Source of the DNA: Chitinophagaceae bacterium
Lineage (GTDB): Bacteria; Bacteroidota; Bacteroidia; Chitinophagales; Chitinophagaceae
DNA length: 64,000 nucleotides
NCBI GenBank assembly: GCA_035760665.1
Contig: DASTSN010000040.1
Coordinates: 82 to 64,081 of the forward strand
Reading direction: 5' to 3'
The notes under the pieces are model-generated. The model searched no databases. It was not told the DNA's origin and saw only the letters and a program-made list of their open reading frames with translations. Shown in pieces: positions 2,003 to 14,071 of the stretch. The position numbers and the translations under genes are program-made. The first letter of the stretch is position 1. Every line of letters starts with the position of its first letter.

Positions 2003-3655
2003 GTGACTACTTTCGATTCCTTAGGTATAGAAGAAGGTTTATTACGTTCAGTTGAGGCGCTGGGTTTTACTACACCTACCCCCATCCAGGAAAAAGCGAT
2101 CCCCGTCCTGCTGCAGGGCACCAAAGATTTCATTGGGCTTGCCCAAACCGGAACCGGCAAAACAGCTGCGTTTGGGCTACCGCTTTTGCAACTGATCAAT
2201 AAAGAAGAACGCATCCCGCAGGCCCTTATTATTTGCCCCACACGGGAATTGTGCCTGCAGATCACTAACGATTTAACTGCATTTAAAAAGAAGGCCGCCA
2301 ATGTAGCGGTAACCGCCGTATATGGCGGCGCCTCTATTAGTATGCAAATCAGGGATCTGAAAAAAGGCACCCAGATTGTGGTGGCTACGCCCGGCCGGCT
2401 CATCGACCTGATTGAGCGAAAAGCCATTCACCTGGAAAATATTCACTACGTGGTGCTGGATGAAGCTGATGAGATGCTGAATATGGGCTTTAAAGACGAT
2501 ATCGAATTTATTTTACAAAACACTCCCCGGCGGCAAAGCACCTGGCTGTTTAGCGCCACGATGCCACCGGAAATCAGGCAGGTGAGCAAGCGCTACATGC
2601 AGCAGCCTTTTGAGATCACCATTGGTAAAGTCAATGCCACCAATGTCAATATTGATCATCAGTACTATGTTACTTCAGCAATAAATCGTTACGAAACCCT
2701 GAAACGTATTATTGATTTTAACCCCGGGTTATACGGCATCATTTTCACCCGCACGAAGGCTGATGCGCAGCAAATTACTGAATCGCTGATCCGTGAAGGC
2801 TACGATATTGAAGCCCTGCACGGAGATCTTACTCAGCAGCAGCGCGACAAAGTGATGGGGCGTTTTCGCGAAAAAAGTCTCCAGTTATTGATTGCTACGG
2901 ATGTGGCTGCCCGTGGCATTGATGTGCAGGGGGTAACCCATGTCATCAATTATGAGCTGCCGGATGATACGGAAGTATACACACATCGCAGTGGACGTAC
3001 AGGCCGCGCCGGCCGCAGCGGTGTTTCTATATCAATTGTTACGGCCAGAGAAATTTACAGGCTCCGGCAAATTGAAAAACTGGTAAACAACCGTTTTCAT
3101 AAAATGGATATACCCAGTGGAAAAGATGTATGCCGCAAACAGTTTTTTCATTTCATTGACAAAATGCAGCAGGCCGACATCAGCCACGGAGAATATGAAG
3201 CCTATTTGCCGGTACTCAGGGAAAAATTTGCAGCAGTAGAAAAAGAAGAAATTTTGCAACGGGTAGCCGCACTCGAGTTCGACCGCTTTTTGAAATATTA
3301 TGAAAACGCAGCTGACCTGAATCTCCGGGAAGAACGGCGGGGTGAAAAAACGCAAATGCCACACCGTGACAGTAAGGGTAAAAGTTTTTCAAGAAATGGA
3401 AACTATCAACGATTGTTCGTTAACCTGGGAACGAAAGACGGTTTTTATAAAGCCAGTTTTCTGCAATTTATTTTGGATATGAGTGACCTGAGCAAGGACG
3501 TGCTCGGGCGAATTGATATGAAAGAAATGAATAGCTGGGTGGAAGTGGAACCGGCAGCTGCCAAAAAGATGATGCGGGCAATTGATGGTAAAAACTTCAG
3601 GGGCAGAAAGATTCGGATGAATGATGCGGACAGCGGTAACCGCAAAAAAAGTTAA
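2003..3655 (+). CDS. deaD: DEAD-box ATP-dependent RNA helicase with C-terminal DbpA-type RNA-binding domain
   Basis: Motifs AQTGTGKT (Walker A), DEAD, SAT, HRSGRTGRAGRSG; 550 aa; C-terminal basic RNA-binding extension. Confidence 0.9.
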   Translation: MTTFDSLGIEEGLLRSVEALGFTTPTPIQEKAIPVLLQGTKDFIGLAQTGTGKTAAFGLPLLQLINKEERIPQALIICPTRELCLQITNDLTAFKKKAANVAVTAVYGGASISMQIRDLKKGTQIVVATPGRLIDLIERKAIHLENIHYVVLDEADEMLNMGFKDDIEFILQNTPRRQSTWLFSATMPPEIRQVSKRYMQQPFEITIGKVNATNVNIDHQYYVTSAINRYETLKRIIDFNPGLYGIIFTRTKADAQQITESLIREGYDIEALHGDLTQQQRDKVMGRFREKSLQLLIATDVAARGIDVQGVTHVINYELPDDTEVYTHRSGRTGRAGRSGVSISIVTAREIYRLRQIEKLVNNRFHKMDIPSGKDVCRKQFFHFIDKMQQADISHGEYEAYLPVLREKFAAVEKEEILQRVAALEFDRFLKYYENAADLNLREERRGEKTQMPHRDSKGKSFSRNGNYQRLFVNLGTKDGFYKASFLQFILDMSDLSKDVLGRIDMKEMNSWVEVEPAAAKKMMRAIDGKNFRGRKIRMNDADSGNRKKS

Positions 3656-3701
3656 AAAAATAATTGTTGAAGATAAAATACGGAATTATATTTGTCGAGA
3701 T

Positions 3702-3788
3702 ATGACAACAGTAAAAGCATTCTTCGGATTTTATTTTTATTACTTCTTTTTTAGCAAGAAGCCGGGATTGCTTTTGTTGAAAGCGTGA
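3702..3788 (+). CDS. pheL: Phe/Tyr-rich leader peptide (28 aa) of the pheA operon attenuator: MTTVKAFFGFYFYYFFFSKKPGLLLLKA
   Basis: ATG at 3702, stop TGA 3786-3788; 7 Phe + 3 Tyr within 12 consecutive codons (3720-3752); lies in the 196-nt leader immediately upstream of prephenate dehydratase; overlaps alternative RNA hairpins (see regulatory feature). Confidence 0.65.
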   Translation: MTTVKAFFGFYFYYFFFSKKPGLLLLKA

Positions 3789-3848
3789 TACATCAAACTA
3801 AAATCAACATAAGAGATCCCGGCCAAAAGCCGGGATTCTTTTTTTATC
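3753..3848 (+). promoter_or_regulatory. Transcription attenuator: alternative antiterminator/terminator structures upstream of pheA
   Basis: Two near-identical copies of gccgggatt(g/c)ttttt (3761-3775 and 3829-3846) can each pair with the single complement atcccggc (3816-3823). Pairing of 3816-3823 with 3829-3836 (loop caaaa) plus U-run 3837-3846 forms an intrinsic terminator 4 nt before the pheA ATG. Pairing of 3761-3768 with 3816-3823 is a mutually exclusive antiterminator. Copy A lies inside the leader-peptide ORF just downstream of the Phe/Tyr codons. Confidence 0.6.
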
Positions 3849-3851
3849 TGT

Positions 3852-4682
3852 ATGGCAACAACCGTATCAATCCAGGGCTACGAAGGCAGTTTTCACCAGG
3901 CTGCTGCCCGGGTATTTTTTGGCAAAGACACAGCCGTGATTCCCTGTGCCACCTTTCGCGATGTGGTAAAAATTGCCGGCGATAAAACACAGAGCGATGG
4001 GGGTGTAATGGCGATTGAAAATTCAATCGCGGGCAGTATTCTTCCGAATTACAACCTGCTTCAGAAAAGTAACCTTACCATTACCGGCGAAGTTTACCTG
4101 CATATCCGGCAAAACCTGCTGGTAAACCCTGGCGTAAAACTGGGAGATATCCGGGAGGTGCACTCACATCCGATGGCGTTGCAGCAATGCCTGGAGTATT
4201 TAGACAAATATAACTGGAAACTCGTTGAGTCGGAAGATACCGCCTTAAGTGCAAAATACATTCACCAGCATAGAAGCCGGCACGTTGCCGCCATTGCCAG
4301 TAAGCTGGCTGCCGATCTTTTCGATCTTGAAGTGCTGGCACCCAATATCCATACGCTAAAAAATAATTATACACGATTTTTAATCTTGCAACGGGCTGAA
4401 ACAGCTGCGCAAATAGCAGGTGCGGATAAAGCTTCTGTGAATTTTTACACCGATCATTCACGTGGCAGTCTTGCAAAAGTGCTGACCAAAATTGCAGAAG
4501 GCGGTATTAACCTGAGTAAACTCCAAAGTTTTCCTATCCCGGGCAGCGATTTTAAGTACAGCTTTCATGCCGATATGGAATTTGATGACTTGGACCAGTT
4601 TCTCAGTGTGATAAAAGGAATTCAGTCGATAACAGAGCAGTTGAAAATTTACGGAATTTATAAACGAGGAATATGGAAGTAG
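3852..4682 (+). CDS. pheA: Prephenate dehydratase (PDT catalytic domain + C-terminal ACT domain)
   Basis: 276 aa; IQGYEGSFHQAA N-terminus typical of PDT; C-terminal ACT-like regulatory region; first gene of aromatic cluster. Confidence 0.9.
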   Translation: MATTVSIQGYEGSFHQAAARVFFGKDTAVIPCATFRDVVKIAGDKTQSDGGVMAIENSIAGSILPNYNLLQKSNLTITGEVYLHIRQNLLVNPGVKLGDIREVHSHPMALQQCLEYLDKYNWKLVESEDTALSAKYIHQHRSRHVAAIASKLAADLFDLEVLAPNIHTLKNNYTRFLILQRAETAAQIAGADKASVNFYTDHSRGSLAKVLTKIAEGGINLSKLQSFPIPGSDFKYSFHADMEFDDLDQFLSVIKGIQSITEQLKIYGIYKRGIWK

Positions 4683-5854
4683 CTAAGCGATTACAGGGAA
4701 TTGGGGAATATTATTTTTCCCAAAAGCTCCGGGAGATAGAGGAGTTAAATAAGCGGGGCAAAAATGTAATTAATCTTGGTATCGGCAGCCCGGATCTGCC
4801 GCCGCATCCGGATGTGATCAACGTATTGCAGCAGGAGAGTGCTAAGCCCAATGTACATGCCTACCAGTCGTACAAAGGCTCGCCCGTGCTTCGAAAAGCG
4901 GTGCGTGATTGGTACCGCGAGTGGTACAGCGTTGAACTGAACCCTGACACTGAGATTTTACCACTCATTGGCAGCAAGGAAGGCATTATGCATGTTTGTA
5001 TGACATACCTGAACGAAGGGGATAAAGCGCTGGTGCCGAATCCCGGTTATCCTACATACAGAAGTGCAGTGAAGCTGGCGGGTGCGGAGTGTGTACCGTA
5101 TACGCTGAAAGAAGAAAATCATTACGAGCCAGATTTTGAGTCGCTTCAGCAAAGCGATCTTTCCGGTATCAGGCTTATGTGGGTAAATTATCCGCAAATG
5201 CCAACAGGCCAGTTGCCTGCAACAGCGTTATTTGAAAAATTGATTGCATTCGGGAAGAAAAATAATATTCTCATTTGCCATGATAACCCTTATAGCTTTA
5301 TCCTGAATGATGAACCGATGAGTCTATTGGCTGTTCCCGGTGCAAAAGATTGTGCTATTGAATTGAATTCCCTGAGTAAATCACATAACATGGCCGGCTG
5401 GCGGGTTGGTATGCTCTGTGGTGCAAAAGAAAGAGTGGACGAAATATTGCGCTTTAAAAGTAACATGGACAGCGGCATGTTTCTGCCCCTTCAGCTTGCT
5501 GCCGCCAAAGCCCTTTCGTTAGGAAAAGAGTGGTATGACAGTATAAATACAATATACCGGGAAAGACGGCAGAAGGTATTTGCCTTGTTGCGCCTGCTGA
5601 ATTGTGAGTTTGCTGAAAATCAGGCAGGCATGTTTGTATGGGCAAAAATACCCGCCGGTTACAAAGACGGCTTTGCGCTAAGCGACCAAGTATTGCAGGA
5701 AGCAGCTGTTTTTATTACACCCGGCGGTATTTTCGGAGAAGCAGGAAACCGCTACATCAGGGTTAGCTTGTGCAGTCCTGCTGAAAAGTTTGAAGAGAGT
5801 ATTACCAGGATACAAAGAACCATGAAAAATCAAAACGAGTTACATGTTCAATAA
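4673..5854 (+). CDS. Class I/II PLP-dependent aminotransferase (aromatic/aspartate aminotransferase-like)
   Basis: 393 aa; SLSKSHNMAGWRVG PLP-lysine motif; overlaps pheA stop by 10 nt (operon). Confidence 0.85.
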   Translation: MEVAKRLQGIGEYYFSQKLREIEELNKRGKNVINLGIGSPDLPPHPDVINVLQQESAKPNVHAYQSYKGSPVLRKAVRDWYREWYSVELNPDTEILPLIGSKEGIMHVCMTYLNEGDKALVPNPGYPTYRSAVKLAGAECVPYTLKEENHYEPDFESLQQSDLSGIRLMWVNYPQMPTGQLPATALFEKLIAFGKKNNILICHDNPYSFILNDEPMSLLAVPGAKDCAIELNSLSKSHNMAGWRVGMLCGAKERVDEILRFKSNMDSGMFLPLQLAAAKALSLGKEWYDSINTIYRERRQKVFALLRLLNCEFAENQAGMFVWAKIPAGYKDGFALSDQVLQEAAVFITPGGIFGEAGNRYIRVSLCSPAEKFEESITRIQRTMKNQNELHVQ

Positions 5855-6692
5855 TGTTACAATTGTGGGTGTAGGCTTAATCAGCGGTTCATTTGCGCTG
5901 GCGTTGAAAGAAAAGCAGCTTGCTAAAAATATCATTGGCGTTAGTCGTACAGAGGCTAGCATACAAAAGGCGTTGGCGTTAGGGCTGATTGATGAATCCT
6001 TGCCGTTGGCTGAGGCGGTGAAAAAAAGTGATTTGATTTACGTAGCCATACCGGTTGATGCCACCTTACCCGTCATGCGGCAGGTTATGGATTTAATCAC
6101 CGAACGCCAGGTTGTTGCCGATGCTGGTTCCACAAAATATGCTTTGTGTGCTGATTTGGCAGATCATCCAATGCGGAAACGGTTTGTAGCCACCCACCCG
6201 ATGTGGGGAACGGAGTACAGCGGACCGGAATCAGCTGTGCGGGATGCTTTTGCAGGCCGTGCTTGTGTCATTTGTGAAAAGGAAAAAAGTGCTGTGGATG
6301 CAGTGGAAACGATGGAAACTATCTACCGGCAACTGGGGATGCATATCATTTACATGGATGCAGCGAACCACGATGTGCATGCAGCATATGTCAGTCATAT
6401 ATCACACATTACATCCTTTGCGCTGGCCAATACGGTACTGGAAAAGGAAAAAGAGGAAGATGCCATTTTTGAACTGGCAGGCGGCGGTTTTGAAAGCACG
6501 GTAAGGCTTGCCAAAAGTAACCCGGCTATGTGGGCGCCAATCTTTATGCAAAACCGGGAAAATGTGCTAGATGTTTTAAATGAACATATCAGCCAGTTGC
6601 GCAAATTCAAAGCTTCATTGGAAAAGGAAAACTATGCGTACCTCTACGAGTTAATGGAGCAGGCAAATAAAATAAAACGGATTTTAAAATAA
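5844..6692 (+). CDS. tyrA: Prephenate dehydrogenase
   Basis: 282 aa; N-terminal Rossmann VTIVGVGLISGSFALALK; overlaps upstream aminotransferase by 11 nt. Confidence 0.85.
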   Translation: MFNNVTIVGVGLISGSFALALKEKQLAKNIIGVSRTEASIQKALALGLIDESLPLAEAVKKSDLIYVAIPVDATLPVMRQVMDLITERQVVADAGSTKYALCADLADHPMRKRFVATHPMWGTEYSGPESAVRDAFAGRACVICEKEKSAVDAVETMETIYRQLGMHIIYMDAANHDVHAAYVSHISHITSFALANTVLEKEKEEDAIFELAGGGFESTVRLAKSNPAMWAPIFMQNRENVLDVLNEHISQLRKFKASLEKENYAYLYELMEQANKIKRILK

Positions 6693-6781
6693 AAAGTGCT
6701 TCCGGTTTAGGAAATGTTTTAACAGTGATGCAGTAACAGGAAACATTCACAAATAAATTAACTTTACAAACAGCAAACTAT

Positions 6782-7873
6782 ATGCAAGCAACAGACACAA
6801 AAACCATGAAAGAAACAGTGCAGGAAAAATGGAATAAACGTCCATTAATTATTGCCGGTCCCTGCAGTGCCGAAACCGAGGAACAGGTTCTGGCGACAGC
6901 CCAGCGGCTGGCAAATACCGGTAAAATTGATTTGCTTCGGGCCGGTATCTGGAAACCCCGCACCAAGCCCGGTATGTTCGAGGGCATTGGCACCAAAGGG
7001 TTACCCTGGCTGCAACAGGCAAAAAAATTTACCGGATTGCCTACCACAGTGGAAGTGGCCACCGCCAAGCAGGTGGAAGATGCACTAACCTTTGAAGTGG
7101 ATGTTCTGTGGATTGGTGCCCGAACAACAGTTAATCCTTTCAGCGTGCAGGAAGTGGCTGATGCGCTGCGCGGGGTGGATGTGCCGGTGCTGATTAAAAA
7201 TCCCATTAATCCCGACCTGGAATTATGGAGCGGGGCTGTAGAGAGGGTGGCAAGGGCCGGCGTTAAAAAAATTGGACTTATACACCGTGGGTTTTCTTCC
7301 TATGGTAATACAGAATACAGAAATGCGCCGATGTGGCATCTGGCAATCGAGATGAAACGTCGCAATCCTGATATGATGATCATTAATGATCCGTCACATA
7401 TTTGTGGACGCAGGGATATATTGATGGATGTTGCGCAAAAAGCCATTGACCTCGACTTTGACGGCCTGATGATCGAAAGCCATATCGATCCGGATAATGC
7501 CTGGAGCGATGCGAAACAGCAAATTACCCCTGAGCGACTGGCTGAAATGCTGGATAGTATCATCTGGCGAAAGGAAGACATCAACTCAGAAGAATTTCAT
7601 GCCGCTTTAGAAAAACTTCGCCAGCAAATCAACCATCTCGATGATGAATTGATGCAGATACTAAGTCAGCGCATGAAAATAGCAGAGAAAATTGGGGAAT
7701 ATAAAAAGAATAATAATATCACAATTCTGCAAACAAACCGGTGGAATGCTATCCTGGAAAGAGCATTTGTGAAAGGGGATAAGCTGGGCCTGAGTAAGGA
7801 GTTTATAACAAAGTATTTTGATGCTGTACACATGGAAAGTATCAGCCACCAGAATAAGATTATGAACAGCTAA
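6782..7873 (+). CDS. Bifunctional 3-deoxy-7-phosphoheptulonate (DAHP) synthase type I-beta / chorismate mutase
   Basis: 363 aa; N-terminal DAHPS/KDO8PS-like (RPLIIAGPCSAE) and C-terminal AroQ-type chorismate mutase (LRQQINHLDDELMQILSQRMKIAEKIGEYK). Confidence 0.85.
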   Translation: MQATDTKTMKETVQEKWNKRPLIIAGPCSAETEEQVLATAQRLANTGKIDLLRAGIWKPRTKPGMFEGIGTKGLPWLQQAKKFTGLPTTVEVATAKQVEDALTFEVDVLWIGARTTVNPFSVQEVADALRGVDVPVLIKNPINPDLELWSGAVERVARAGVKKIGLIHRGFSSYGNTEYRNAPMWHLAIEMKRRNPDMMIINDPSHICGRRDILMDVAQKAIDLDFDGLMIESHIDPDNAWSDAKQQITPERLAEMLDSIIWRKEDINSEEFHAALEKLRQQINHLDDELMQILSQRMKIAEKIGEYKKNNNITILQTNRWNAILERAFVKGDKLGLSKEFITKYFDAVHMESISHQNKIMNS

Positions 7874-7960
7874 AACCCTGTTCAGGGTAAGAGATGTATT
7901 GATGTTAATTTGGTAAAACCTTTTATGCCTGTATTAGAGCTGTAACTGGAGAGAATCTAC

Positions 7961-8980
7961 ATGAAACATATCAATATAAAGTTTGGTCAATCTGCAACGG
8001 ATTTTTACCTCGATGCTTCTTTCAGCTATTTAAAAAAAATTGTTGATCCCAAAAGAGCTGTGCTGATTACAGACGAGCATGTTTTTCAATATCACAGTCA
8101 GCGGTTTAAAAACTGGAATGTGATTGTTTTAAAACCGGGCGAGGAATATAAAGTCCAGGCCACTGTTGATGCGATTATTGAGCAGTTGATTGAAATGGAG
8201 GCTGACCGCCAAACAACACTTGTTGGTATAGGCGGGGGTGTAATTACTGACATCACAGGTTATGTGGCATCTGTTTATATGCGCGGAGTTCGCTTTGGTT
8301 TTGTGCCCACTTCGGTACTGGCCATGGTAGATGCGTCAATAGGCGGGAAGAATGGTATTGATGTTGGTGTATACAAAAATATGGTCGGTGTTATCAGGCA
8401 GCCTTCGTTCATTTTACACGATTTATTCTTTCTCAAGTCATTACCCCAGCAGGAATGGGAAAATGGATTTGCAGAAATAATAAAACATGCCTGCATTAAA
8501 GATGCCGCCATGTTTCGGGAACTGGAAACAAATTCTTTACAAAAATACAGGTCAGTTAAAAGCGTAATGGCAGCCCTCATTCACCGGAATATGATGATTA
8601 AAGTAAGGGTGGTACAGAAAGATGAATTTGAAAAAAATGAACGACGGCTACTCAATTTCGGCCACACCCTGGGGCATGCGCTGGAGAACCAGTATGAACT
8701 GCTGCATGGTCAGGCGGTAGCGATAGGCATGACCTATGCCTGTAAAATTTCTGAACAGCTTACCGGCTTCAGGCACACTGATAAGGTAGTAAGTGTGCTG
8801 GAGAAATATGGATTACCCGCTTATGCACGGTTTGATAAACAAAAAGTATTGACTGTACTAAAAATGGATAAGAAACGGGAAAAAAGGGAAATCAATTACA
8901 TCTTGCTGGAAAAAATCGGGCGGGCGGTTATCCAACCCATTCCGATAAAGCAGGTAGAAACATTTATTGCGCAATTTTAA
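7961..8980 (+). CDS. aroB: 3-dehydroquinate synthase
   Basis: 339 aa; LVGIGGGVITDITGYVAS nucleotide-binding motif; NFGHTLGHALE metal-binding region. Confidence 0.9.
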   Translation: MKHINIKFGQSATDFYLDASFSYLKKIVDPKRAVLITDEHVFQYHSQRFKNWNVIVLKPGEEYKVQATVDAIIEQLIEMEADRQTTLVGIGGGVITDITGYVASVYMRGVRFGFVPTSVLAMVDASIGGKNGIDVGVYKNMVGVIRQPSFILHDLFFLKSLPQQEWENGFAEIIKHACIKDAAMFRELETNSLQKYRSVKSVMAALIHRNMMIKVRVVQKDEFEKNERRLLNFGHTLGHALENQYELLHGQAVAIGMTYACKISEQLTGFRHTDKVVSVLEKYGLPAYARFDKQKVLTVLKMDKKREKREINYILLEKIGRAVIQPIPIKQVETFIAQF

Positions 8981-8992
8981 ATAGCCGGGATC

Positions 8993-10300
8993 ATGAAAGC
9001 GACAATTGTACCGTCATTTTTAAAAGGAAATATTCTTGCCCCGGCTTCGAAGAGTTCCATGCAGCGGGCCTGTGCTGCAGCGCTGCTGGCAAAAGGAAAA
9101 AGCATTATCCGTAACCCGGGGCACAGCAACGATGACAAAGCAGCTATCGGGATTATAGAAAATCTTGGTGCTGTGGTAACCCAGGGTCATGAACAACTGA
9201 TGATTGAAAGCAACGGGGCACCTTTTGCTGCAGCGCCTTCGTCACTGCGAATTAATTGCGGGGAGAGTGGTTTAGGCATTCGTATGTTTACCCCCATTGT
9301 TACGCTCAGTAACAGGGATATCATCATTGACGGAGAAGGAAGCCTGCGTAACCGGCCGATGGATTTTTTTGATGAAATCCTTCCGCAGTTGGGATTGACT
9401 GTTGTTTCTAATAATGGCAAACTGCCACTACGCATTAAAGGAACACTGCAACCTCAGAATATAACGATTGACGGATCACTGAGCTCCCAGTTCCTTACGG
9501 GTCTGCTGCTGGCCTTTGCCGCTGCTGATGCCTGTGATATTTCGGTAAAAGTGAAGAATCTGAAAAGCAAACCCTATATTGATCTGACGCTTGATGTGAT
9601 GAAACGTTTTGGTCTGAAAACGCCTGAAAATCAAAACTACGAAACGTTTTATTTTTCCGCAGTGTCTCATTCATTGACCGCAACAGAACATCACTATACA
9701 GTGGAAGGTGACTGGAGCGGCGGTGCTTTTTTACTAGTTGCCGGAGCCATAGCTGGCGACATCATGGTGCGGGGGTTAGATATGTATTCCACCCAGGCTG
9801 ATAAAGCGGTTGTGGAGGCTTTGATTGCGGCCAATGCCGGTATCGCGGTTGAAGCCAAAGGAATCAAACTCCTGCATAAAGACATGCAGGCATTCTCTTT
9901 CGACGCCACTGATTGTCCTGATCTTTTTCCGCCACTCGTAGCACTGGCTGCGTATTGCACCGGTGCAACGACTATAAAAGGCGTACAACGGCTGACGCAT
10001 AAAGAGAGTAACCGGGCTATTACCTTGCAGGAAGAGTTTGGAAAAATGGGAGTACAGATAGAACTGGCAGATGATATAATGACAATCCATGGTGGTAAGC
10101 GACCTAACGGTACTGTTGTTCACTCCCGGCATGATCACCGCATTGCTATGGCTTGTGCGGTTGCTGCATTACGGGCAAACGGGGAGACGGTGATTGAAGA
10201 TGCGGAAGCGATTAATAAATCCTATCCGGATTTTTACAGGGATTTGCAAGAACTTGGAGCTGCCATATCTTTACCAAATAAGTTTTTATTTCATGAATAG
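8993..10300 (+). CDS. aroA: 3-phosphoshikimate 1-carboxyvinyltransferase (EPSP synthase)
   Basis: 435 aa; PASKSSMQRA and LRNRPMDFFDE EPSPS signatures. Confidence 0.9.
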   Translation: MKATIVPSFLKGNILAPASKSSMQRACAAALLAKGKSIIRNPGHSNDDKAAIGIIENLGAVVTQGHEQLMIESNGAPFAAAPSSLRINCGESGLGIRMFTPIVTLSNRDIIIDGEGSLRNRPMDFFDEILPQLGLTVVSNNGKLPLRIKGTLQPQNITIDGSLSSQFLTGLLLAFAAADACDISVKVKNLKSKPYIDLTLDVMKRFGLKTPENQNYETFYFSAVSHSLTATEHHYTVEGDWSGGAFLLVAGAIAGDIMVRGLDMYSTQADKAVVEALIAANAGIAVEAKGIKLLHKDMQAFSFDATDCPDLFPPLVALAAYCTGATTIKGVQRLTHKESNRAITLQEEFGKMGVQIELADDIMTIHGGKRPNGTVVHSRHDHRIAMACAVAALRANGETVIEDAEAINKSYPDFYRDLQELGAAISLPNKFLFHE

Positions 10301-11285
10301 TTTTGGGCGCATATTTCGTGTAAGCATTTTTGGAGAATCGCACGGCGAGTCTGTTGGTATTGTCATTGATGGCTGCCCGGCGGGCTTGCCATTATCGGCA
10401 GAAGACTTGTTACCAGACCTGGAGCGGCGAAAAGGCGGTACCCAAAAAGGAACCACGCCGCGACAGGAAGACGACTTCCCGTTTTTTAAAAGCGGTATTT
10501 TCAACAATCAAACAACCGGCGCTCCCATCACTATTTTATTTGAAAATAAAAATACCCGTAGCGGTGATTATGAAAAACAGCGGGCGGTACCACGTCCCGG
10601 CCATGCTGATTTTGTAGCACAAAAAAAATTTGGTGGCTTCGAAGATTTTCGCGGCAGCGGTCATTTCAGCGGCCGCTTAACCGTTGCGCTGGTGGCAGCA
10701 GGGGTGATTGCCAAAAAACTGATCAGCCCGGCGATGGTCAATAGTGCTATTCTTGAAATTGGCGGTGAGAAAGATCTGGAAAAAGGATTGCAAAAAGCCA
10801 TTACAGCCAAAGACTCCGTTGGAGGCATCGTGGAATGCCGGGCGCAAGGTCTTCCCGTTGGTTTAGGAGAACCTTTTTTTGATTCTGCTGAATCGTTGCT
10901 GGCGCATGCGGTATTTGCAATTCCTGCTGTTCGTGCTGTGGAGTTTGGTACCGGATTTGCCGCTGCCCGCATGTTCGGCAGTCAGCACAATGACGCCATC
11001 ACCACGATGGACGGAAAGACCAGTACCAACCATGCAGGTGGCATCGTAGGTGGGATTACCAACGGAAATGAATTGGTTTTACGCATTGCAGTTAAACCCA
11101 CTTCTTCAACACCAAAGGAACAGCACACACTGAACTGGGAAACAGGCGACATGGAAACGGTATCGATCAAAGGCCGTCACGATCTCTGTATTGCCCTGCG
11201 GGTGCCGGTGGTGCTGGAGGCTGTTACAGCCATTGTGCTGGCTGACCTGCTCTTGCTGGAACAACGAATCAATAGAATCCTGTAA
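10293..11285 (+). CDS. aroC: Chorismate synthase
   Basis: Start reassigned to ATG 10293 (MNSFGRIFRVSIFGESHGESVG), overlapping aroA stop by 8 nt; track ORF 10194 is an in-frame N-terminal over-extension. Confidence 0.9.
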   Translation: MNSFGRIFRVSIFGESHGESVGIVIDGCPAGLPLSAEDLLPDLERRKGGTQKGTTPRQEDDFPFFKSGIFNNQTTGAPITILFENKNTRSGDYEKQRAVPRPGHADFVAQKKFGGFEDFRGSGHFSGRLTVALVAAGVIAKKLISPAMVNSAILEIGGEKDLEKGLQKAITAKDSVGGIVECRAQGLPVGLGEPFFDSAESLLAHAVFAIPAVRAVEFGTGFAAARMFGSQHNDAITTMDGKTSTNHAGGIVGGITNGNELVLRIAVKPTSSTPKEQHTLNWETGDMETVSIKGRHDLCIALRVPVVLEAVTAIVLADLLLLEQRINRIL

Positions 11286-11287
11286 GT

Positions 11288-11590
11288 ATGCCGCATATTT
11301 ATCACATTACCACGCTGCAAAACTGGCAGCAGGCCCAGGGGGCGGGCTATTATGAAGCTCCCTCGCTGAAAGAAGAGGGATTTATACACTGTTCGCAGGA
11401 AGCACAGGTTACTGCTGTGCTGGAGCGATACTATGCCGGTAAAACGGGACTTATAAAACTGGTTATTGATCCGGACCGTTTAACCAGTAAACTGGTATAT
11501 GAATGGTCCCCTTCGGTGCAGGATACTTTTCCGCACATTTATGGATCGATTAACCTGGATGCAGTTGTGGAGGTCGTTCCATTGCGCTAA
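11288..11590 (+). CDS. DUF952 family protein
   Basis: 100 aa; HITTLQNWQ...EGFIHCS...FPHIYGSINLDAV matches DUF952 pattern; starts 2 nt after aroC stop. Confidence 0.6.
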   Translation: MPHIYHITTLQNWQQAQGAGYYEAPSLKEEGFIHCSQEAQVTAVLERYYAGKTGLIKLVIDPDRLTSKLVYEWSPSVQDTFPHIYGSINLDAVVEVVPLR

Positions 11591-12303
11591 TGCTGCCTGA
11601 ATTTTTTAAAATCAATATCCAGAACGTCAAAATTTCGTTGACTGGTATAATAGTAATGCCACCACTCTGTTTCCAGGGCTTTAAAACCATGCTTTTCCAT
11701 AACGCTTTTTAAGAGTAAGCGATTTTGTAAAATCTCTGCGGGTAAGCTTGTAAAATTCTGGTGTGCCGTGTCGGAAAAATTATCAAAGCCCGTTCCCATG
11801 GGCAGTTCTTCTCCGGATGTTCTGTTTATGATAGTGAGGTCAACAGCTATGCCACGATTATGACCGCTTCCTTTAGATGGGTCGGCTACATATCGCTCAT
11901 CTTTAATAAGATGCCACATTTTTACAGTTACACTGTAGGGCCGGTACGCATCAAAAATTTTTAAACCAAATCCTTTTGCGGCAAGTTCCCGGTCCACCTG
12001 GGCAAGGGCTTTAGCAGCTTCTGCACGCATGAAAGTTTTTGTACCCTGCGAATACAAACGAACACCAGTGAAATTATTTTTAGTAGCATACCGTAAATCA
12101 TATACGAGCTCGGGAATCAGTGATTTCAATTCAACCATTTCCTTATTCCTGTCGTCTTTCACTGAAAAATTATATTGTTGAATGGTGTGAATGACCTGTA
12201 ATGAATTGGTTTGCTGTGAGTAGGCAGCTTCAACGATAAATGTTGAAAAAATGCAGAACAGACAGGCCCTGAAATGAAAACCTTTTGTTATTTTGTTAAT
12301 CAT
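11587..12303 (-). CDS. M15 family zinc D-Ala-D-Ala dipeptidase (VanX/DdpX-like), secreted
   Basis: SGHNRGIAVDLT and WWHY motifs; signal peptide if started at internal Met (MINKITKGFHFRACLFCIFSTFIVEAAYS); longer track ORF to 12342 probably over-extended. Confidence 0.7.
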   Translation of the reverse strand: MINKITKGFHFRACLFCIFSTFIVEAAYSQQTNSLQVIHTIQQYNFSVKDDRNKEMVELKSLIPELVYDLRYATKNNFTGVRLYSQGTKTFMRAEAAKALAQVDRELAAKGFGLKIFDAYRPYSVTVKMWHLIKDERYVADPSKGSGHNRGIAVDLTIINRTSGEELPMGTGFDNFSDTAHQNFTSLPAEILQNRLLLKSVMEKHGFKALETEWWHYYYTSQRNFDVLDIDFKKFRQH

Positions 12304-12343
12304 ACTGTCGCTAATCAGACAGAAAATTAGTGTAAATATCAAT

Positions 12344-14071
12344 ATGCACCATACACACGGTAAGTTCGCTGGTCACGTACATATAGCCCTGCTTTTTTTT
12401 ATTTCGGTTGCGAATGTTTTCCTTTTGCCGTCCTGCAAAAGTCATTCCCGTCCCAGGGCGAAGGAGATAGTTGCTAAGCCGGAGGATATTGATGCAAAAG
12501 CGTCGGATATTATAGCGCAAACAGTAGAAGATGCAGCGAATAATTTTGGTAAGGTTGATGATTCCATCACGCTCAGCCAGCCACAGGTGACCCGTCATAT
12601 ATACCAGCAGTTTCAAAATGAGGTTCGCTGGTCGCAAAAAGAAAATTGGTTGCCGCTTGCCGATTCGTTGTACACCTTTATCAATCAATCCCGCCTGTAT
12701 GGATTGCTGCCGATGAACTATCATATTAACCAGTTGTCTTCCATACGGGCAAGAATCGCAGCCGATACGGCTGGCAAAGAAGACCGGAAAGATGCAGTTT
12801 TATGGGCGAAGGCTGATTTGATGTTCACAGATGCATTCGTGCAAATACTGCATGATATAAAACTCGGCAGGTTGCCAAACGACAGCATAACAATGCGGCA
12901 GGATTCTGTTTTGACCAATGATTTTTATGTAAAAAAACTGCAGGCATTTTTCCAGCCTGTTTCACTGACTCAAATAGTGGATTCGTTAGAGCCAGATAAC
13001 AAAGATTACCGCGACCTCAAGGCCGGTATCCCGCAGTTTCTGGATAGCGCGCATTTCAAACAATACACATTTATTGCTTATCCCTACAGCGACTCCCTGC
13101 AATTTGTCAAAGATCTTTTGAAGCGGCTGAACGAAGAGGATAGCCTTGTGAAGGATCCTGCTGCTGCCTATGATTCCCTGCAGATGGCGAAATTCCTCTT
13201 GCAATATCAAAAGAAAAAAGGGCTGGCGGCCGATGGTAAATTTGGTCCCCAGGTGTTAAACGCACTGAATAATACCGACAACGAAAAATTTATAAGAATT
13301 GCCATTTCAATGGACCGCTGCAAACTGCTACCGCCCAAAATGCCTGAAAAATACGTGTGGGTAAACCTGCCGGGCTTTTATTTACAATTGCGGGAAAATG
13401 ATACTGTCAAAATTCAATCCCGCATTGTTTGTGGCAAACCTGCAACACGTACGCCGGTATTGAACAGCAGCATTTATAACATGATCACCTACCCGCAGTG
13501 GACAATCCCCACCAGTATCATTGTAAAGGAAATATTACCCGGGCTAAAAAAAGACCCGGGTTACCTGGCAAAAAAAGGGTATTCACTGTTAGATAAAGAT
13601 GGTAACGAAGTGGACCCCTATTATGTGGACTGGTCTAAATATCACAAAGGCATACCTTATAAAGTTATCCAGGGAAGCGGTGATGACAATGCGCTGGGGG
13701 TGCTGAAATTCAATTTTGGCAATAAATATGCTGTATACCTGCATGATACCAACCAGCGTTACCTGTTCAGCAGAGCAGTAAGGGCATTGAGTCATGGTTG
13801 TGTACGGGTACAAAATTGGGATAAGATGGCATATTATATCCTTAGCAATGATAGCGCCTCGGTATTTGGTGCCCGTGGGAAGTACCTGCCTGCCGATTCG
13901 TTAAAGCATTGGTTGAAAAACAAGGAAAAGCACAGCATTGCTGTCAAAAACAAAATCCCGCTCTTTATCCGGTACATGACCTGCGTGGGAAACGATGGCA
14001 AGATCATGTTCTACGATGATATTTACGGTGAGGACAGGCAGTTGCGGGAGCGTTATTACCACGTTCAGTAA
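12344..14071 (+). CDS. L,D-transpeptidase (YkuD/ErfK/YcbB-like) with peptidoglycan-binding domain
   Basis: Catalytic region VYLHDTNQRYLFSRAVRALSHGCVRV (His...SHGC); PG_binding_1-like KKKGLAADGKFGPQVLNALN; start placed at Met of MHHTHGKFAG... followed by hydrophobic signal-like segment. Confidence 0.8.
   Translation: MHHTHGKFAGHVHIALLFFISVANVFLLPSCKSHSRPRAKEIVAKPEDIDAKASDIIAQTVEDAANNFGKVDDSITLSQPQVTRHIYQQFQNEVRWSQKENWLPLADSLYTFINQSRLYGLLPMNYHINQLSSIRARIAADTAGKEDRKDAVLWAKADLMFTDAFVQILHDIKLGRLPNDSITMRQDSVLTNDFYVKKLQAFFQPVSLTQIVDSLEPDNKDYRDLKAGIPQFLDSAHFKQYTFIAYPYSDSLQFVKDLLKRLNEEDSLVKDPAAAYDSLQMAKFLLQYQKKKGLAADGKFGPQVLNALNNTDNEKFIRIAISMDRCKLLPPKMPEKYVWVNLPGFYLQLRENDTVKIQSRIVCGKPATRTPVLNSSIYNMITYPQWTIPTSIIVKEILPGLKKDPGYLAKKGYSLLDKDGNEVDPYYVDWSKYHKGIPYKVIQGSGDDNALGVLKFNFGNKYAVYLHDTNQRYLFSRAVRALSHGCVRVQNWDKMAYYILSNDSASVFGARGKYLPADSLKHWLKNKEKHSIAVKNKIPLFIRYMTCVGNDGKIMFYDDIYGEDRQLRERYYHVQ

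Follow-up and report, generated by a model that had tools for sequence, protein, structure and literature searches.

The 196-nucleotide (nt) spacer between a DEAD-box/DbpA helicase gene (2003-3655) and the pheA gene (3852-4682) of a Chitinophagaceae bacterium (contig DASTSN010000040.1, positions 82 to 64,081 of the forward strand, a 64,000-nt stretch hereafter called the window) holds a short open reading frame (ORF) dominated by Phe and Tyr codons and, overlapping and following it, a set of hairpins that compete for the same nucleotides. Judged from its sequence and conservation, this leader is very probably a classical ribosome-mediated transcription attenuator of the leader-peptide type, which would sense charged tRNA-Phe, and probably also tRNA-Tyr. 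An initial annotation made from the letters of the window had proposed ribosome-mediated attenuation at this site, and that reading was supported, with every testable sequence-level prediction holding. The elements of the proposed switch, by position in the window, are as follows.

3702-3788, plus strand: leader ORF from the ATG at 3702 to the TGA at 3786-3788, 28 codons, encoding MTTVKAFFGFYFYYFFFSKKPGLLLLKA.
3720-3752, plus strand: regulatory codon block, in which 10 of 11 codons are Phe or Tyr.
3709-3727, plus strand: region 1, the anti-antiterminator and partner of region 2, from the most stable fold, with an inverted repeat at 3713-3722/3766-3775.
3761-3780, plus strand: region 2, the antiterminator 5' arm, within the leader ORF, located by repeat finder and folding.
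3804-3823, plus strand: region 3, the antiterminator 3' arm, whose final 9 nt double as the terminator 5' arm.
3815-3845, plus strand: predicted intrinsic terminator with a 9-bp GC-rich stem (3815-3823/3829-3837), a CAAAA loop and a run of seven U (U7, 3839-3845).
3743-3761, plus strand: small hairpin CUUCUU/AAGAAG (stem 3743-3748/3756-3761), with the last Phe/Tyr codons as its 5' arm and a 3' end that abuts region 2.

Direct reading confirmed both that the spacer contains an unannotated 28-codon ORF and that ten of twelve consecutive codons (3720-3755) are Phe or Tyr, as had been claimed. The density of these codons proved unique when all six frames of the 64-kb window were scanned: the leader was the sole stop-free 12-codon stretch with at least nine Phe or Tyr (F/Y) codons, and the next-best count outside the leader spacer was seven. 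Small ORFs with single-amino-acid runs were also sought elsewhere in the window, and no candidate was convincing, the matches falling inside coding regions. The leader is hence a short ORF, rich in codons for the end products Phe and Tyr, placed 5' of a biosynthetic operon.

The initial annotation described two copies of gccgggatt(g/c)ttttt. Two copies do exist, the exactly shared part being only the 9-mer GCCGGGATT, whose sole occurrences in the window are those at 3761-3769 and 3829-3837 and which is embedded in a wider repeat of 22 nt with 82% identity. A duplicated 9-mer is at chance level in 64 kb (at least two copies were present in 22 of 100 shuffles), and the significance of the leader repeat therefore lies in its arrangement and conservation rather than in copy number. 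The segment ATCCCGGC (3816-3823) pairs with 3829-3836 over 8 nt at 100% complementarity across a 5-nt loop and is followed by TCTTTTTTT, which places a predicted intrinsic terminator (3815-3845) after the leader ORF and ahead of the first structural gene. The perfect 8-bp pairing, the loop and the U7 had been recognised correctly, and the gap from the end of U7 to the pheA ATG (3852) was corrected from 5 to 6 nt. The competing upstream pairing is also present, with far longer arms than first described: 3761-3780 and 3804-3823 are 20 nt each and 85% complementary, and 3815-3823 is common to antiterminator and terminator. The logic of a terminator/antiterminator switch thus stood, and region 1 (3709-3727), which had been overlooked, would supply its missing piece.

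The leader folded with lower energy than its shuffles (z = -3.2), and the minimum free energy (MFE) structure of the presumed transcript combined the pairing of region 1 (3709-3727) with region 2 (3762-3779), the nested small hairpin and the terminator. With region 4 denoting the terminator 3' arm, the 1:2, 2:3 and 3:4 helices alone had energies of -17.6, -26.3 and -18.0 kcal/mol, the OFF state (1:2 plus 3:4) reached -36.6 kcal/mol, and the best antiterminated (ON) state -32.8 kcal/mol. This is the classical energy hierarchy, because 2:3 beats 3:4 if region 2 is free and 1:2 and 3:4 jointly beat 2:3; the antiterminator excludes the terminator and is the more stable of the two. For the small hairpin at 3743-3761, a role in pausing or stacking is possible. 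This hairpin was also considered as the true region 1 and rejected, its 3' arm overlapping the antiterminator by one base.

The closest matches of PheA were all from Chitinophagaceae, namely a metagenome protein at 99% identity and proteins of Terrimonas and metagenome-assembled genomes (MAGs) at ~80%. Of the 80 Chitinophagaceae genome loci fetched, 79 included upstream sequence, and each of these 79 carried an ORF of 21-31 codons with an F/Y core, a GC-rich hairpin and a T run. The leader peptides follow the consensus M-x3-K-A-Y-x2-F-Y-F-Y-F-Y-F-...-(R)PG(M)LLL and contain on average 5.4 Phe and 3.7 Tyr codons, with at least two Phe and at least two Tyr in every leader; one Trp codon was present in 14 leaders.

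Covariation was assessed on an alignment of 80 sequences (A2), with shuffles and slid arms as controls. The terminator was paired in 95.8% of cells and had changed on both sides at 7 of 11 pairs, a score that 0 of 500 shuffles reached, and slid arms gave at most 63%. For the antiterminator, 80.6% of cells were paired (slid arms 35-49%) and 12 of 16 pairs had changed on both sides (e.g. GC:40 / AU:18 / UA:3). Region 1:2 together with the small hairpin was paired in 67% of cells (slid arms 42-52%), with covariation at a few core pairs (GC:44 / AU:13 at one). In lineages whose stems differ, regions 2, 3 and 4 vary jointly, as in the triplets GCGGGGA/CCCCCGA/TCGGGGG, AGCGGGA/TCCCGCT/GGCGGGA and GTAGAGG/CCTCCGA/TCGGAGG. 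A hairpin ending at region 2, its 5' arm likewise formed by the last F/Y codons, is found in most homologues, with differing arm sequences and a mean stem of 6.4 bp compared with 3.0 bp in shuffles.

A covariance model (R1) was then available from A2, built on its 80 Chitinophagaceae leaders including that of the window; the training set contained no metagenome, Alistipes or Chitinophaga loci. R1 gave a single match in the window (134.7 bits) and matched 5' of pheA in every one of the 80 metagenome loci fetched independently (34-141 bits; E <= 1e-3 in 79). The two comparative checks proposed in the initial annotation, a conserved F/Y micro-ORF in relatives (79 of 79 genome loci, 80 of 80 metagenome loci by covariance model) and compensatory changes in both hairpins, accordingly turned out positive. 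Some of the matched metagenome lineages have a PheA just 52-60% identical to that of the window, and there the stems are unrelated in sequence and the complementarity of regions 2, 3 and 4 is kept.

Taxonomic breadth was followed through the metagenome scan, a third protein search and contig look-ups. A profile search with distant PheA representatives (50% identity) returned Chitinophagaceae again. Two Alistipes sp. MAGs (Bacteroidales) have the leader MSKYSPFYAYYFYFGFSKSGPDGVCA followed by a terminator, and Chitinophaga dinghuensis has two tandem F/Y attenuators, MNTQVTFGFFGFYYFWYQE and MKKQFTSYFFYYFSYFFYAKKPGTRLQ; R1 scored 47-49 bits in the former and 50-55 bits in the latter, and in both the leaders stand 5' of genes in the order pheA-aminotransferase-tyrA-DAHPS/CM (the last being the fusion of DAHP synthase and chorismate mutase). 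The leader architecture is found with unrelated stem sequences in Alistipes, Chitinophaga dinghuensis, loci L081-L084 and locus L136.

Tandem, complete F/Y leader-terminator units 5' of pheA were observed at L163:2649-2947 (Chitinophaga dinghuensis), L119:1560-1860, L128:2144-2441, L141:2147-2451 and L136:1591-1876. The first peptide of the pair ends in ...FYYFWYQE, or in ...YFYGFYFFWYQK in L141, and one of its codons is for Trp. With two attenuators in series, the response would be sharper.

A promoter was sought immediately 5' of the leader. A sigma-70 scan gave 17 sites versus 17.3 in shuffles, no excess, as expected for Bacteroidota, and a search for TAnnTTTG was used in its place. The housekeeping promoter of this phylum consists of TAnnTTTG centred at -7 and TTTG near -33 (PMC7366714), the centring having been seen in Bacteroides thetaiotaomicron. 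Two candidate elements are present in the window.

3687-3694, plus strand: -7 box TATATTTG (TAnnTTTG), 7 nt 5' of the leader ATG.
3664-3666, plus strand: -33-like TTG, 20 nt 5' of the -7 box, putatively part of a predicted sigma-ABfr-type promoter.

Transcription would accordingly start near 3698, giving a 5' untranslated region (UTR) of ~4 nt. A strict TAnnTTTG within 60 nt 5' of the leader ATG was found in 70 of 79 loci (0.03 expected by chance), in 66 of the 79 Chitinophagaceae loci the distance between the final G of the box and that ATG was 4-10 nt (mode 7), and a TTG stood 19-20 nt 5' of the -7 box, the modal spacer, in 37 of 70 related loci. With the promoter box so near the ATG, the leader mRNA is probably leaderless, or else its 5' UTR measures at most ~5 nt. 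Neshat et al. reportedly found that leader peptides of Corynebacterium glutamicum are translated from leaderless transcripts; in B. thetaiotaomicron, 5' UTRs below 10 nt make up just 3.7% of the total. The promoter box is 28-54 nt 5' of the leader ATG in Alistipes, in Chitinophaga and in the L081-L084 group, so that the near-leaderless layout appears to be a trait of the Chitinophagaceae loci, and this pattern points to a change, specific to that lineage, towards translating the leader from a leaderless mRNA.

Taken as a working mechanism, transcription would begin a few nt before the leader ATG from the TAnnTTTG promoter. If no ribosome were present, region 1 (3709-3727) would pair with region 2 (3761-3780) and region 3 would be free to form 3:4, which together with U7 would terminate transcription 6 nt before pheA. 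With Phe- and Tyr-tRNA plentiful, a ribosome would reach the stop codon at 3786, cover the 3' half of region 2 and sit between regions 2 and 3, and the terminator would again form. With either tRNA scarce, the ribosome would stall in the F/Y block (best at 3729-3747), masking region 1 and freeing region 2; the 2:3 antiterminator (-26 vs -18 kcal/mol for the terminator) would then form before region 4 is made, allowing read-through into pheA-aminotransferase-tyrA and probably DAHPS/CM-aroBAC.

The ribosome was simulated by masking a footprint of 30 nt, and in an alternative model all RNA upstream of the ribosome was masked as well. Folding with and without masking, as the initial annotation had proposed, gave the expected outcome in the window: with the footprint placed with its A site at 3729 or 3738, the MFE structure flipped to the antiterminator, and with the stop codon masked it was the terminator. 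Pairing probabilities (P) of region 3 were obtained from partition-function folds of transcripts ending after region 3 in 80 leaders. With a ribosome on the F/Y codons, region 3 was paired with a mean P of 0.77 (0.89 at the best codon); with a ribosome at the stop codon and the upstream RNA masked too, P was 0.05. For A sites at 3729-3747 in the window, P was 0.86-1.0. The family geometry agrees with this: the last F/Y codon is 5-12 nt (mode 7-8) from region 2, and the leader stop codon is invariably at or beyond the 3' part of region 2. In the model, the antiterminator 5' arm is covered in every case once the ribosome has reached the stop codon and is left free by an F/Y-stalled ribosome, the stop-codon state being less clear when the footprint alone is masked. 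The distance of about 9 nt between the last Phe codon and the first repeat copy, which had been raised as a concern, turned out to be quite ordinary for the family.

Several observations weigh against this reading. Of the three helices, 1:2 is conserved least (67% of cells) and is the weakest part of the model. When the 30-nt footprint alone was masked, a ribosome at the stop codon left region 3 paired with P of 0.94 in the window and 0.64 on average, which blurs the contrast between F/Y stall and stop codon and makes it dependent on the steric assumption. A stall on the last one or two Phe codons partly covers region 2, and P falls to 0.43. Without a ribosome and without region 4, the equilibrium favours 2:3 (P of 0.94 in the window, mean 0.79), so termination on an untranslated leader must rest on 1:2 forming first, that is, on kinetics. 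The full-length MFE structure flipped upon masking in just 4 of 9 leaders from distant lineages, which makes equilibrium MFE folding a weak test. The model presupposes efficient intrinsic termination and coupling of transcription to translation in Bacteroidota, both of which would have to operate here. As for Tyr, its codons could have another use, namely interrupting U runs or forming the small hairpin. According to PMC11802643, the C. glutamicum aroR leader (F-Y-F) reportedly responds to Phe limitation and not to Tyr, for which reason Tyr sensing by the window leader is put forward as an inference only.

Alternation between terminator and antiterminator is by itself silent on what flips the switch, and the 1:2 pairing is just moderately conserved. 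Both would suit a real RNA switch that is run by a trans factor (a TRAP-like Phe/Tyr-binding protein, an aptamer or, T-box-like, uncharged tRNA), with the F/Y ORF incidental. Such a switch is very unlikely, if still the least improbable of the rival explanations. Across 80 leaders, the 8-codon cores have T at position 1 in 91%, T or A at position 2 in 90%, and T or C at position 3 in 96%; TTA accounts for 1 of 640 core codons, and the alternative frames are interrupted by stops in 76 of 80 and 67 of 80 homologues. This codon-position signature and the closed other frames indicate selection on Phe/Tyr codon identity and not on mere U-richness, and together with the conserved ATG and the open frame they point to translation. 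The stop codon stands, moreover, in every case where a ribosome terminating at it would cover region 2, and in A2 no conserved unpaired motif was seen besides the F/Y codons. Rfam gave no matching family: no T-box or riboswitch matched at E <= 10 across window positions 3000-13000, and a scan of 18 related loci at gathering thresholds gave no match to any family. A permissive-E scan returned chance-level matches only (snoR135, STnc260 and Phe_leader), and the Phe_leader family RF01859 remained below threshold in the window (22.7 bits vs a gathering score of 55, E = 3.8).

Slightly less probable still is that the element controls translation of pheA, either by a hairpin that occludes initiation or by a leader ORF that aids re-initiation. 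Short leader genes near structural genes have been proposed as translation enhancers (PMC4833913), and the hairpin ends 14 nt from the pheA ATG in the window and 1-20 nt from it in many relatives. Over all loci, however, this distance varies from 1 to 198 nt, and many loci carry unrelated inserts with the hairpin and the U run intact. The U run is conserved across the homologues of A2, and the leader stop is 64 nt from pheA, which is beyond coupling range.

A functional hydrophobic micropeptide, or a leader RNA acting in trans besides or instead of a cis role, was given less credence again. Trans action has a precedent in the Sinorhizobium trpL RNA and peptide (rnTrpL/peTrpL), as documented in PMC7298713 and PMC7968998, and the N-terminal K-A-Y of the leader peptides is recurrent. 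The C-terminal sequence, the length and the stop position nevertheless vary and fall into three classes, and conserved residues outside the F/Y block match RNA pairing segments (AAAGCA with its partner UGCUUU, and CCGGGA, which codes for PG). The least probable explanation, that the hairpin is the terminator of the helicase gene, which ends at 3655 on the same strand, and that the F/Y ORF is a chance product of a T-rich and indeed AT-rich spacer, founders on the conserved promoter motif between helicase gene and leader, on the many loci in which leader and terminator accompany pheA behind a different upstream gene (the helicase is upstream in just 26 of 80), and on an F/Y enrichment that is codon-specific and unique in the window.

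The attenuator favoured here has well-known relatives in design. The four-segment scheme (1:2, 2:3, 3:4) and the energy hierarchy of the window leader are those of Escherichia coli trpL, and the thr and ilvGMEDA leaders sense more than one amino acid by means of mixed regulatory codons. These three leaders serve other amino acids and show no homology to the one in the window, which has an extra small hairpin formed from the last regulatory codons. The closest functional parallel, pheL-pheA of E. coli and other gammaproteobacteria, likewise has an ORF with Phe codons, exclusive antiterminator and terminator hairpins directly 5' of pheA, and a logic based on ribosome position (PMC3082878). It differs in that no sequence or structure homology is detectable by RF01859 scores, in that pheL uses Phe only whereas the window leader alternates Phe and Tyr, and in that the operon of the window adds tyrA, an aminotransferase and common-pathway genes. 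The host phylum, in addition, does not rely on Shine-Dalgarno-based initiation, and the window leader has a 5' UTR of probably ~0-5 nt and a predicted sigma-ABfr-type promoter.

The aroR-aroF leader of C. glutamicum, as described in PMC11802643 (citing Neshat et al. 2014), is similar in having a mixed Phe-Tyr-Phe leader peptide, ribosome stalling and aromatic genes including DAHP synthase. That system belongs to another phylum, has aroF instead of pheA as first gene, and has a motif of just three residues, F-Y-F, compared with 8-11 F/Y codons here. Within the phylum, a single sentence in Gurvich et al. (2011) states that Bacteroides 'potentially use a pheL gene' (PMC3082878). The putative Bacteroides pheL shares phylum and target gene with the leader described here and is probably of the same family as the Alistipes leader, a comparison by description only, the passage in PMC3082878 giving no structure, covariation, distribution or Tyr codons. 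The claim that such attenuators are only sparsely predicted in Bacteroidota fared accordingly: the search for literature on Bacteroidetes leader peptides found almost nothing specific, and for Bacteroidota just this passing prediction, while the mention of a Bacteroides pheL in PMC3082878 makes the present case less exotic than supposed. According to Naville and Gautheret (2010; PMC2965389), leader peptides had until then been demonstrated in Proteobacteria and Actinobacteria alone, and in B. thetaiotaomicron Ryan et al. described small ORFs 'reminiscent of leader peptides'.

The mechanism is a textbook one and no new principle; what is modestly unusual is the alternation of Phe and Tyr codons, the near-leaderless layout and the tandem copies in one genus. 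A broader proposal is made tentatively, with confidence a little under even: that the leaders form an ancient attenuator family, absent from Rfam and spanning at least two orders of Bacteroidota (Chitinophagales and Bacteroidales), that reads both Phe and Tyr through alternating codons, is leaderless or nearly so in Chitinophagaceae, and has been tandem-duplicated in Chitinophaga. With ~160 relatives in addition to the window, the sequence comparison offers strong evidence for leader-peptide attenuation in Bacteroidota, including gut Alistipes, and it would predict control of Phe and Tyr synthesis in abundant soil and gut bacteria. The attenuator would account for the unannotated spacer of ~200 nt and for over-extended pheA gene calls, and the alignment and model R1 can be used for annotation. 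Should the broader proposal of an ancient family hold, its leaders would lend themselves as natural reporters, simple to assay, for leaderless initiation and transcription-translation coupling in Bacteroidota. The window leader is in addition a compact test bed for such coupling in a phylum whose initiation is Shine-Dalgarno-independent and, at this locus, apparently near-leaderless.

Turning to the genes under control, Pfam searches identified the downstream products as PDT (prephenate dehydratase), a class I/II aminotransferase, prephenate dehydrogenase, a DAHP synthase-chorismate mutase fusion, DHQ synthase, EPSP synthase and chorismate synthase, which agrees with the gene content pheA-aminotransferase-tyrA-DAHPS/CM-aroBAC given by the initial annotation. 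They fall into two blocks.

3852-6692, plus strand: conserved regulated core of overlapping ORFs, pheA (3852-4682), aminotransferase (4673-5854) and tyrA (5844-6692).
6782-11285, plus strand: downstream aro genes, DAHPS/CM (6782-7873), aroB (7961-8980), aroA (8993-10300) and aroC (~10194/10314-11285).

Nearly all 80 genome loci keep the order pheA-aminotransferase-tyrA, as do Alistipes and Chitinophaga dinghuensis, and a core that makes both Phe and Tyr, with overlapping genes that are kept together, fits a sensor of Phe plus Tyr. Control of the whole aromatic supercluster, as first proposed, finds support only in part: the conserved unit is pheA-aminotransferase-tyrA, DAHPS/CM follows tyrA in ~48 of 80 loci, and internal promoters are possible. 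In the window, neither the 89-nt gap before DAHPS/CM nor the 87-nt gap before aroB contains a terminator-like site or a strict promoter box, and co-transcription of DAHPS/CM-aroB-aroA-aroC with the core is therefore plausible.

The DEAD-box/DbpA helicase gene recurs near the pheA cluster, 5' of pheA in 26 of 80 loci and 3' of tyrA in 17, which suggests local rearrangement around the conserved pheA-aminotransferase-tyrA block. For chorismate synthase, the listed ORF begins at a TTG and overlaps aroA by 107 nt (10194-10313 in the window); its Pfam match begins at residue 41, and the true start is probably near 10314. Directly after aroC, an uncharacterised ORF of 100 aa (11288-11590, plus strand) converges on a gene for a D-Ala-D-Ala dipeptidase (Peptidase_M15/VanY; 11587-12342, minus strand), which likely marks where the transcription unit ends; an intrinsic terminator was not apparent there. 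Inserts of 40-200 nt between the terminator and pheA were seen at L003, L005, L006, L007, L009, L029 and L096, the window having none. They carry short G/C-rich palindromes, e.g. CCCCTAAAGGGG, that resemble repetitive extragenic palindromic (REP) elements or miniature inverted-repeat transposable elements (MITEs). Some loci have an N-terminal extension of PheA, and inserts or extensions of this kind probably explain PheA annotations of 290-305 aa.

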